Positions 35,785 to 36,132 are shown, counted from the stretch's first letter. The stretch: 64,000 nt of DNA from Spirochaetota bacterium (GCA_040768125.1 JAXGNG010000001.1:1095318-1159317); one strand, 5' to 3'. Made by a program: numbers and translations. The notes: generated by a model not told the origin, from the sequence alone.

Positions 35785-36132
35785 TCAGTTGCTCTTCGCG
35801 CCGATGCCACAGCATCGCGCGATATCCATCTGCTTTTCCGCGCCGGTCCTGAGCACGGTCTCGACGCAGTTGATGAAGTCGAGAATGCAGGGACAGCAGA
35901 GGGAATAGTAGATGCTTGTGCCCCTCTTTTCGTCATGAACCAGCCCGGCGTTCTTCAGCACCGACAGGTGTTTCGACACGGTGGAGACGTCGGAGCCGAT
36001 CATTCCCGTCAGGTCGTTGACGCACCGCTCGCCCCGGTTCAGCTCCTCGATGATGAAGAGCCTGGCGGGGTGTCCCATGGCCTTGATGATATTTGCCCGC
36101 GCCTCGTACTGCGGGGGGAGTCCTTTTTTCAT
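35785..36132 (-). CDS. arsR: ArsR/SmtB-family metalloregulator (atypical metal site)
   Basis: HTH_20 core ...HPARLFIIEELNRGERCVNDLTGMIGSDVSTVSKHLSVLKNAGLV... The ELCVCDL site is reduced to ERCVNDL (single Cys), plus a C-terminal Cys cluster LCCPCILDFINC...CCG (AfArsR-like). AGGAGG RBS; starts 13 nt after the hgcB stop. Confidence 0.85.
   Translation of the reverse strand: MKKGLPPQYEARANIIKAMGHPARLFIIEELNRGERCVNDLTGMIGSDVSTVSKHLSVLKNAGLVHDEKRGTSIYYSLCCPCILDFINCVETVLRTGAEKQMDIARCCGIGAKSN

Follow-up and report, generated by a model that had tools for sequence, protein, structure and literature searches.

A cysteine-rich ArsR/SmtB-family repressor encoded between hgcAB and arsenic resistance genes in Spirochaetota: predicted operator, conserved cysteines and probable effector

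Introduction

The gene arsR of a Spirochaetota bacterium lies between the mercury-methylation genes hgcAB and a set of arsenic resistance genes, and raises the question of which effector its product senses and whether this regulator also controls hgcAB. The control of hgcAB expression and the true role of HgcAB are open questions in mercury biogeochemistry. The single hgcAB regulator tested so far is ArsR2 of Pseudodesulfovibrio mercurii ND132, an unrelated ArsR encoded upstream of hgcA, which makes hgcAB arsenic-responsive (bioRxiv 10.1101/2022.10.17.512643). ArsR and ars genes near hgcAB have already been published, including Spirochaetes MAGs and arsR downstream of hgcAB (PMC7438021; bioRxiv 10.1101/2020.02.03.933291; PMC11984097; Table S4 of bioRxiv 10.1101/2022.10.17.512643).

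Here we analyze the window, a stretch of 64,000 nt (GCA_040768125.1, JAXGNG010000001.1:1095318-1159317), together with related loci. Positions are counted from the first nucleotide of the window, and all features given with coordinates are on the minus strand.

Results

The regulator and its fold

The arsR reading frame (35785-36132, ATG start, TGA stop) encodes a protein of 115 amino acids with seven Cys, and its translation matches exactly the three cysteine motifs quoted for this ArsR in the initial annotation. The DNA-binding domain is recognized by the Pfam HTH_5/ArsR model (PF01022, E=2e-12, 47.2 bits against a cut-off of 22), and the protein passes the NCBIfam model of the ArsR/SmtB metalloregulator subfamily (NF033788, 80.1 bits, cut-off 55). 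None of the specific NCBIfam equivalogs is passed, BigR, TsoR, CmtR and Rv2640c all remaining far under their cut-offs.

The AlphaFold2 model, based on a 48-sequence alignment, has a confident canonical fold (pLDDT 91.6) with helices at residues 7-19, 22-33, 38-45, 49-61 and 83-107 and a beta hairpin formed by strands 65-70 and 73-78, which is exactly the alpha1-alpha2-alpha3-alphaR-beta-beta-alpha5 order of the family. A Foldseek search with this model returned ArsR-family structures only, at 25-34% identity and probability 1.00, with Rv0081, SqrR, NolR and CzrA as the best matches, and SmtB and CadC also present. The product of 35785-36132 is a genuine ArsR/SmtB repressor with an uncharacterised cysteine pattern.

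Gene neighbourhood

The first gene of the region, hgcA (36427-37602), encodes 391 amino acids from the ATG at 37602; its product scores 392.5 bits with the NCBIfam equivalog NF040863 (cut-off 275) and has the cap-helix NVWCAAGK. It overlaps by 16 nt the ferredoxin gene hgcB (36146-36442; equivalog NF040864, 119.2 bits, cut-off 99), whose product ends in ...GCC. Both features expected of an HgcAB pair, the cap-helix N(V/I)WCA(A/G)GK and a 2x[4Fe-4S] HgcB with a C-terminal Cys, are present. The hgcB stop codon is separated from arsR by 13 nt, AAGGAGGAACGCA, and a Shine-Dalgarno sequence precedes arsR.

Downstream of arsR, after 46 nt, there is a gene for an ArsP_1-family permease (34431-35738; PF03773, E=1.9e-72, no NCBIfam equivalog cut-off passed), followed after 14 nt by a gene for an MTH895/ArsE-family thioredoxin-like protein with a checked start codon (34177-34416; TIGR00412, 109.7 bits, cut-off 62; PF13192) and, 3 nt further, by the gene of the arsenite efflux transporter Acr3 (33079-34173; equivalog TIGR00832, 414.6 bits, cut-off 282.8). 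The substrates of the ArsP_1 permease and of the ArsE-like protein are putative, and nothing on ArsE besides the ND132 paper (bioRxiv 10.1101/2022.10.17.512643) was found in the searched literature. Beyond acr3, an LMW-PTP-type, ArsC-like arsenate reductase is encoded at 31785-32255 (PF01451; TIGR02691 at 135 bits, under the cut-off of 174), and a phd/PIN toxin-antitoxin pair, which has a promoter of its own, lies between these two genes.

With gaps of -16, 13, 46, 14 and 3 nt from hgcA to acr3, and terminator-like sites in this region no commoner than in shuffled sequences (7 vs 6.2), hgcA-hgcB-arsR-arsP-arsE-acr3 is likely a single transcription unit. The order arsR-arsP-arsE-acr3, with an Acr3 equivalog above its cut-off, is that of an ars operon repressor sharing its unit with arsenic resistance genes.

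Related loci

A word-indexed search yielded 1659 ArsR homologues at E<=1e-5, the best of them from MAGs of Spirochaetota, Smithellaceae and Chrysiogenales, and a genome scan retrieved 80 related loci, all from metagenome-assembled genomes. The plasmid collection contained no close homologue of this ArsR, the best match there having 48% identity over 56% of the query.

In 69 of the 80 related loci arsR is the first gene. In 64 of these 69 loci, referred to below as ars-only, arsP, a gene for the arsE-like thioredoxin, acr3 or arsC follows on the same strand (acr3 or arsC in 42/69), and hgcAB is absent from the examined flanks of approximately 8 kb in 64/69. In five Syntrophales loci (L033, L038, L040, L063, L071) hgcAB is found near a related arsR in a different arrangement; in the two that were inspected in detail, L038 and L063, hgcAB is preceded by a MarR-like gene and is not part of the arsR unit.

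The window and 11 Spirochaetota MAGs (L001-L011) have hgcAB between the operator described below and arsR, and ars genes are kept in the same unit in 10 of these 11 loci. In the neighbour-joining tree the hgcAB-linked ArsRs group together as a single clade, separate from their ars-only counterparts in other Spirochaetota. Three of the hgcAB-linked genomes (L006, L008 and L010) have, moreover, a second, ars-type arsR paralogue at the head of arsP-arsE, preceded by its own operator in L006 and L010.

Predicted operator and promoter

The ars-only loci share an element consisting of the promoter TTGACA-N17-TATATT and the palindrome ATTTGGC-N6-GCCAAAT that straddles the -10 box. In the form TTGACA-N~8-GGCTATTTGGCTATATTGCCAAATA it is found at most 120 nt upstream of arsR in 63 of the 67 ars-only loci whose upstream region is long enough; of random 120-nt segments from these loci, 0.9% reach the threshold. 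A matrix was built from 42 ars-only sites, with no hgcAB-linked locus in the training set. Applied to both strands of the 64-kb window, it gives one match, at 37626-37653 with 36.6 bits; the next unrelated site has 1.2 bits, and the maximum over 20 shuffles is 10.5.

The matched site contains the 7-6-7 inverted repeat ATTTTGC-TAATTA-GCCAAAT(A) at 37627-37647, the predicted ArsR operator, which is situated 24 nt upstream of the hgcA ATG and overlaps the -10 box of a putative promoter (37635-37663). This promoter, as read from the sequence, has the same architecture as in the ars-only loci, with the -35 box TTGACA at 37663-37658, a 17-nt spacer and the -10 box TAATTA at 37640-37635; a strict consensus promoter scan did not report it, owing to the final A of the -10 box. 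The TTG at 37644, given as the hgcA start by the ORF finder, falls within the operator.

In all 11 hgcAB-linked loci L001-L011 the operator is upstream of hgcA as well, and in none of the 11 is it found within 120 nt before arsR. In the window no separate arsR operator was found inside hgcB or before arsP. The simplest reading of this arrangement is that hgcAB were inserted between the ars promoter/operator and arsR, which would make them the promoter-proximal part of an ArsR-controlled operon.

The pairing of this ArsR with the operator is predicted from their co-occurrence. The recognition helix (residues 50-61, STVSKHLSVLKN) is near-identical between hgcAB-linked and ars-only ArsRs, the exceptions being rare conservative substitutions. 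The control of hgcAB by ArsR, assumed in the initial annotation, becomes plausible from comparative data, since the element that precedes arsR in nearly all ars-only relatives sits in front of hgcA in the window and in each hgcAB-linked locus. In the searched literature the operator sequence gave unrelated matches only, and neither a cognate operator nor its place upstream of hgcA was found described there.

Cysteine pattern and its conservation

The seven cysteines form three groups. The first is represented by C37 in the segment E35-R-C37-V-N-D-L41 (36010-36030), a remnant of the alpha3 site ELCVCDL in which the first Cys alone is kept. The second is the cluster C79-C80-P-C82...C89 (35866-35898) in the middle motif Y75-Y-S-L-C79-C80-P-C82-I-L-D-F-I-N-C89, which covers the junction of the beta wing and alpha5 and the first two turns of alpha5 and contains the hallmark P-C-x6-C. 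The third is the vicinal pair C107-C108 (35809-35814) in the tail motif R106-C107-C108-G-I-G111 at the C-terminal end of alpha5. By the order of elements in the AlphaFold2 model, C37 is in the N-cap position of alpha3, C79-C82 span the connection from the wing to alpha5, C89 follows after two turns of alpha5, and C107/C108 close this helix, which stops at residue 107.

Conservation was counted over the window and the 80 related loci, i.e. 12 hgcAB-linked proteins (the window and L001-L011) and 69 ars-only ones. C82 is invariant (12/12 hgcAB-linked, 68/68 ars-only, 80/80 overall), and C89 is retained in 78/80 proteins overall, including 68/68 ars-only and 10/12 hgcAB-linked ones, with Ser in L006 and L008. 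C37 is present in 12/12 hgcAB-linked and 65/69 ars-only proteins. In the tail, C108 is found in 11/11 hgcAB-linked and 55/69 ars-only proteins, and C107 in 11/11 and 38/69, respectively, the count of 11 referring to hgcAB-linked orthologues with the C-terminus on the contig. The loss of the C-terminal cysteines beside hgcAB, named in the initial annotation as an observation that would count against a sensory role, is therefore not seen. C80 occurs in 10/12 hgcAB-linked and 39/69 ars-only proteins, and C79 in 10/12 and 0/69, with Arg in this position in 60 ars-only proteins; the two hgcAB-linked proteins that have neither C79 nor C80 are those of L010 and L011.

As judged by conservation across the window and the 80 loci, the cysteine pattern is not due to chance. 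The best conserved cysteines are C82 and C89, invariant in the 67-68 ars-only relatives, and C37, all ahead of the tail pair, so that the emphasis of the initial annotation on the tail was misplaced. About ten substitutions specific to the hgcAB-linked clade fall within alpha5 and the tail.

An exhaustive search of 1.84 billion cluster representatives (50% identity) gave 884 proteins at E<=1e-10, of which the best 146 usable ones were analyzed. C82 and C89 occur together in 116 of these 146 representatives, in the pattern P-C-[IV]-L-x-F-F-x-C-[IV]-E, and therefore the hallmark of the clade is the alpha5 pair and not the tail. Among the same best 146 usable representatives, the pair is accompanied by the full alpha3 C-V-C in 65 proteins, by C37 only in 31, and by neither in 19. 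A large and uncharacterised clade of ArsRs, some with the alpha3 C-V-C and some lacking it, is marked by P-C-x6-C where alpha5 begins; no paper in the searched literature was found to assign this ArsR to such a distinct clade.

Among close relatives the full C-V-C is found in 5 of 7 tail-less proteins vs 0 of 62 with a Cys in the tail. A tail Cys was considered as a substitute for Cys39 and rejected: among the best 146 representatives, C-V-C occurs without a tail Cys in 36 proteins and with some in 29, the corresponding numbers for C37 only being 19 and 12. As covariation failed in this larger set, the relation between the tail and C-V-C is treated as phylogenetic.

Comparison with known sensory sites

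In the alignment with characterised sensors (alignment A2) presumed sequences of R773 ArsR, SmtB, CzrA and CmtR were used, the offsets of SmtB and CzrA agreeing with those of the PDB search; the AfArsR sequence was checked and is identical to PDB 6J05 over residues 1-117. The distances and orientations of the cysteines in the window ArsR are deduced from its alignments to SmtB and CzrA.

The type 1 As(III) site of R773 ArsR, Cys32-Val-Cys34-Asp-Leu-Cys37 in alpha3, is incomplete in the window ArsR, where the first Cys alone is present. Cys32 of R773, as we take its sequence to be, corresponds to C37, Cys34 to N39, and Cys37 to T42, which bears out the earlier statement that the alpha3 site is reduced to one Cys. 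The window ArsR resembles the E. coli R773 and chromosomal ArsRs in family and fold, in being a predicted autoregulated repressor encoded with an ars operon such as those that they head, and in the position of this Cys within E-x-C-V-x-D-L, but R773 does not use cysteines at the start of alpha5 or in the C-terminal tail, which are conserved here.

Cys57 and Cys61 of CmtR, in what we presume to be its sequence, fall on V58 and A62, and the CmtR model NF047906 gives 29.5 bits vs a cut-off of 150, so the alpha4C Cd/Pb site, for which two Cys of the recognition helix and a C-terminal one are needed, is missing. C37 aligns with Cys61 of SmtB, and C80/C82 occupy, at the N-terminus of alpha5, the positions of D104/H106 of SmtB and D84/H86 of CzrA (alignment A2 and PDB-search offsets). 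Sensors of this alpha5 class have D/H-x-H at the N-terminus of the helix and, 11-14 residues on, H-x-x-H/E. The distal ligands of the alpha5 Zn(II) site, H117/E120 in SmtB and H97/H100 in CzrA, are replaced by V93 and T96, and the site as such is absent; unlike in SmtB and CzrA, the ligand positions here are thiolates and the genomic context is that of arsenic, not zinc.

A 2024 review lists three As(III) arrangements only, namely the alpha3 C-V-C with a third Cys nearby or C-terminal, the CCx5C of AfArsR, and the site of CgArsR (PMC11672702). AfArsR of Acidithiobacillus ferrooxidans (type 2) shares with the window ArsR a C-terminal vicinal Cys pair, and the alpha3 C-V-C, incomplete here, is wholly absent there. 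However, since Pro82 of AfArsR aligns with Pro81 of the window ArsR, its ligands Cys95/96/102 correspond to residues 94/95/101 (L94, R95 and Q101) and not to 107/108. The pair C107/C108 is located 12-13 residues further on, at the end of the 25-residue alpha5, with no later Cys and no CCx5C, and 6J05 was not among the results of the PDB sequence search at E<=0.001. The C-terminal site had been described in the initial annotation as that of AfArsR; this likeness does not hold, and the difference of the present site from AfArsR was not found in the searched literature. The comparison with the alpha3N, alpha5 and C-terminal site classes that had been proposed there thus confirms the reduced alpha3 site, speaks against the AfArsR class, and adds C80/C82 in alpha5 positions.

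The type 3 site of Corynebacterium glutamicum CgArsR1 (6J0E) consists of one Cys of C-V-C and two N-terminal Cys of the other subunit (PMC11672702). Its logic, one Cys of C-(V/A)-C combined with cysteines located elsewhere in the dimer, is the one proposed here for C37. Unlike in CgArsR1, where the partner is an N-terminal vicinal pair, residues 1-36 of the window ArsR contain no Cys, though one Cys of C-V-C is present. By these sequence comparisons, the cysteine pattern of the window ArsR is none of the three described As(III) site types.

ArsR2 of ND132 (DND132_1054) is likewise an ArsR-family protein, co-transcribed there with hgcAB, and arsenic raises hgcAB transcription; in its dimer model C-V-C and a pre-helix C-x-C form one site (bioRxiv 10.1101/2022.10.17.512643). 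Compared by description, its Cys C47, C49, C86 and C88, at the start of alpha3 and before the last helix, are probably in topologically the same two places as C37 and C80/C82. In contrast to the window, arsR2 is directly upstream of hgcA rather than downstream of hgcB, the protein has the full four-Cys C-V-C and C-x-C site, the spacing to C-x-C is 39 vs 43 residues here, and there are no other ars genes at that locus.

Proposed mechanism and effector

We consider the window ArsR, with a probability of roughly 0.65, to be an autoregulated repressor of an arsenic resistance operon in which hgcAB are placed as the two promoter-proximal genes and whose inducer is As(III). According to the comparative data, the ArsR dimer would bind the palindrome ATTTTGC-TAATTA-GCCAAAT (37627-37647) over the -10 box of the TTGACA-17-TAATTA promoter and block transcription of hgcA-hgcB-arsR-arsP-arsE-acr3, the repression perhaps extending to arsC beyond acr3. 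As suggested by the operon content, As(III) would then bind the cysteine thiolates and release the repressor.

As(III) is the most likely effector, because members of the clade are the predicted regulators of acr3, arsC, arsP and arsE-like genes in 64/69 loci, such genes are kept in 10/11 hgcAB-linked loci, and both the arsR-arsP-arsE operon of ND132, induced by As(III) and As(V) (bioRxiv 10.1101/2022.10.17.512643), and hgcAB of that strain respond to these two forms. With the predicted ArsR site in front of them, hgcAB are probably switched on here by arsenic rather than by mercury. In the initial annotation As(III), Hg(II) or both had been named as the effector: the arsenic part agrees with the content of the ars operons, and the Hg(II)/MeHg part is not supported, the 69 ars-operon relatives having the same set of cysteines.

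The sensory site may, with low confidence, be built around C37 and the alpha5-start cluster C80/C82 and C89, and C107/C108 may add an extra or alternative ligand. In the AlphaFold2 model residues 36-37 form a short beta bridge, so that C37 is probably packed against the wing strand leading into C79-C82. C82 and C89 are i/i+7 on one helix; with seven residues between these positions, coordination of a single As atom by both would require unwinding of the helix or ligands contributed by different subunits. If the CzrA ligand pairs are taken as a guide, C89 is expected close to the dimer dyad. Any specific set of ligands is tentative.

The tail pair, with vicinal Cys and no third Cys nearby, may suggest a regulator selective for methylarsenite or another organoarsenical, where C107/C108 would bind MAs(III), two thiolates being enough. 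A two-Cys AfArsR-like repressor of Shewanella putrefaciens reportedly binds MAs(III) by two thiolates. Moreover, the operon encodes an ArsP_1-family permease together with a thioredoxin of the ArsE-like kind, and published annotations assign such proteins to organoarsenical resistance (bioRxiv 10.1101/2022.10.17.512643). Still, we regard this selectivity as unlikely: 31/69 ars-only relatives lack C107 and 7 have no tail at all, C82, C89 and C37 are far better conserved, and acr3 and arsC, which act on inorganic arsenic, share the operons. In addition, all 7 tail-less relatives have arsP downstream where the contig allows, which argues that the CC tail does not track arsP.

The persistence of C82/C89 in the 19 representatives (among the best 146 usable) that have neither alpha3 cysteine is also what could be expected of a redox or reactive-sulfur sensor, in which a disulfide or polysulfide would bridge C82 and C89, or C37 and a C-terminal Cys, in the manner of SqrR/BigR. 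A dithiol is used by many non-metal ArsR proteins (PMC11672702), a thioredoxin-like protein is encoded in the operon, and SqrR is among the closest solved structures. This function is nevertheless quite improbable, as the alpha2 Cys of SqrR, which in this class pairs with a Cys of alpha5, aligns with E29, the BigR model NF040642 gives 40.5 bits vs a cut-off of 155, and the operon content in 64/69 loci is that of arsenic resistance.

With the clade-specific substitutions clustered in alpha5 and the tail, retuning to another effector is conceivable. In its broadest form this would mean that the hgcAB-linked clade is no longer a plain arsenite sensor, the recognition helix and the operator being kept and the sensory half being retuned to Hg(II)/MeHg or to the HgcAB product. 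We consider this a long shot; if true, this clade would comprise the first sensor dedicated to the mercury-methylation pathway. The observations on which it draws are the gain of C79, the roughly ten alpha5/tail substitutions and the loss of C89 in two genomes with an ars-dedicated paralogue. Sensing of Hg(II) or methylmercury in particular, instead of or besides arsenic, would be consistent with a thiolate-rich protein, with C79 producing C-C-x-C in 10/12 hgcAB-linked proteins vs 0/69 others, with the gathering of substitutions mentioned above, with the monophyly of the clade, and with the second, ars-type paralogue in three genomes. It is, however, very improbable: the core conserved cysteines are the same as in the 69 ars-operon regulators, ars genes are still in the same unit in all but one of the 11 hgcAB-linked loci, and C79 and C80 are lacking in L010 and L011. 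Moreover, published work, as far as it is cited in the ND132 paper, finds hgcAB not to be regulated by Hg (bioRxiv 10.1101/2022.10.17.512643), and a model peptide of the AfArsR binding segment takes up Hg(II) without the ordered site that As(III) induces (PMC11212059).

Finally, an AfArsR-type C-terminal As(III) site is hardly credible in spite of the vicinal CC kept in 11/11 hgcAB-linked orthologues, given the alignment of Cys95/96/102 to L94, R95 and Q101, the lack of CCx5C and of any Cys past C108, and the dispensability of the tail in part of the family.

Discussion

If the window ArsR is, as we favour, the arsenite-responsive repressor of an ars operon with hgcAB at its head, the Spirochaetota clade would represent the second architecture tying mercury methylation to the arsenic stimulon, via a different ArsR lineage than that of ND132. 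The prediction that follows is an induction of hgcAB by arsenite in these organisms, mediated by the palindrome at 37627-37647. The thiolate site of the P-C-x6-C clade may also be relevant to the biochemistry of metalloregulators and to arsenic biosensors that function in anaerobes.

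Candidate regulators of hgcAB

A CRP/FNR-type palindrome, TTGACACGGGTCAA in the minus-strand reading, lies upstream of hgcA at window positions 37684-37697 and is the single occurrence of the pattern TTGAY-N4-RTCAA in the 64-kb window. It is flanked on one side by the flavodiiron-protein gene (37851-39038, plus strand), which is divergent from hgcA, and on the other by the ArsR operator and the hgcA promoter. The same box is found upstream of the ArsR operator in hgcAB-linked loci L001-L004, L006 and L007. Activation from this box could affect the flavodiiron gene, hgcA, or both. 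CRP/FNR-family regulator genes are located immediately 3' of hgcA-hgcB-arsR in Spirochaetota MAGs L006 (8311-9030) and L008 (5404-6054); no homologue of these regulators was found in the 64-kb window.

In the hgcAB-linked ArsRs of the same two loci (L006, 8001-8330; L008, 5048-5386), the otherwise invariant alpha5 residue Cys89 is replaced by Ser, and Phe86 by Ile. Both genomes also encode a second, ars-type arsR paralogue ahead of arsP. The loss of Cys89 and Phe86, together with the presence of this paralogue, suggests that sensing by the hgcAB-dedicated copy is relaxed or altered.

A third kind of regulator for hgcAB may be represented by a MarR-like protein of 159 aa with the C-terminus C-C-S/K, encoded upstream of hgcAB in Syntrophales MAGs L038 (7316-7795, minus strand) and L063 (4133-4612, plus strand), where this gene and hgcAB adjoin the arsR operon, outside its bounds.

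Organization of the ars genes and neighboring transporters

Several loci with ars genes not linked to hgcAB carry a second ArsR operator copy 3' of arsR. In L018 (~8350), L019 (~8352), L053 (~8315), L070 (~8466) and L073 (~5891) it is situated between arsR and arsP, an arrangement by which arsP can have its own putative ArsR-controlled promoter; in L076 (~747) it follows arsR, with arsP detected downstream in the first five of these six loci. The 46-nt arsR-arsP gap of the window contains no second copy.

The ars operon of the window may be split by a phd-type antitoxin and PIN-like toxin pair (32367-33025, minus strand), an insertion that separates acr3 from the arsC homologue and has its own near-consensus promoter, TTGACA-17-TATATT, at 33025-32997.

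Just past the divergent flavodiiron gene, positions 39080-44287 contain genes for a cation-diffusion facilitator and an MntP-type manganese exporter, and an ORF for a 1185-aa membrane protein that the analysis placed in no family. Metal- and stress-related transporters cluster around the hgc/ars operon.
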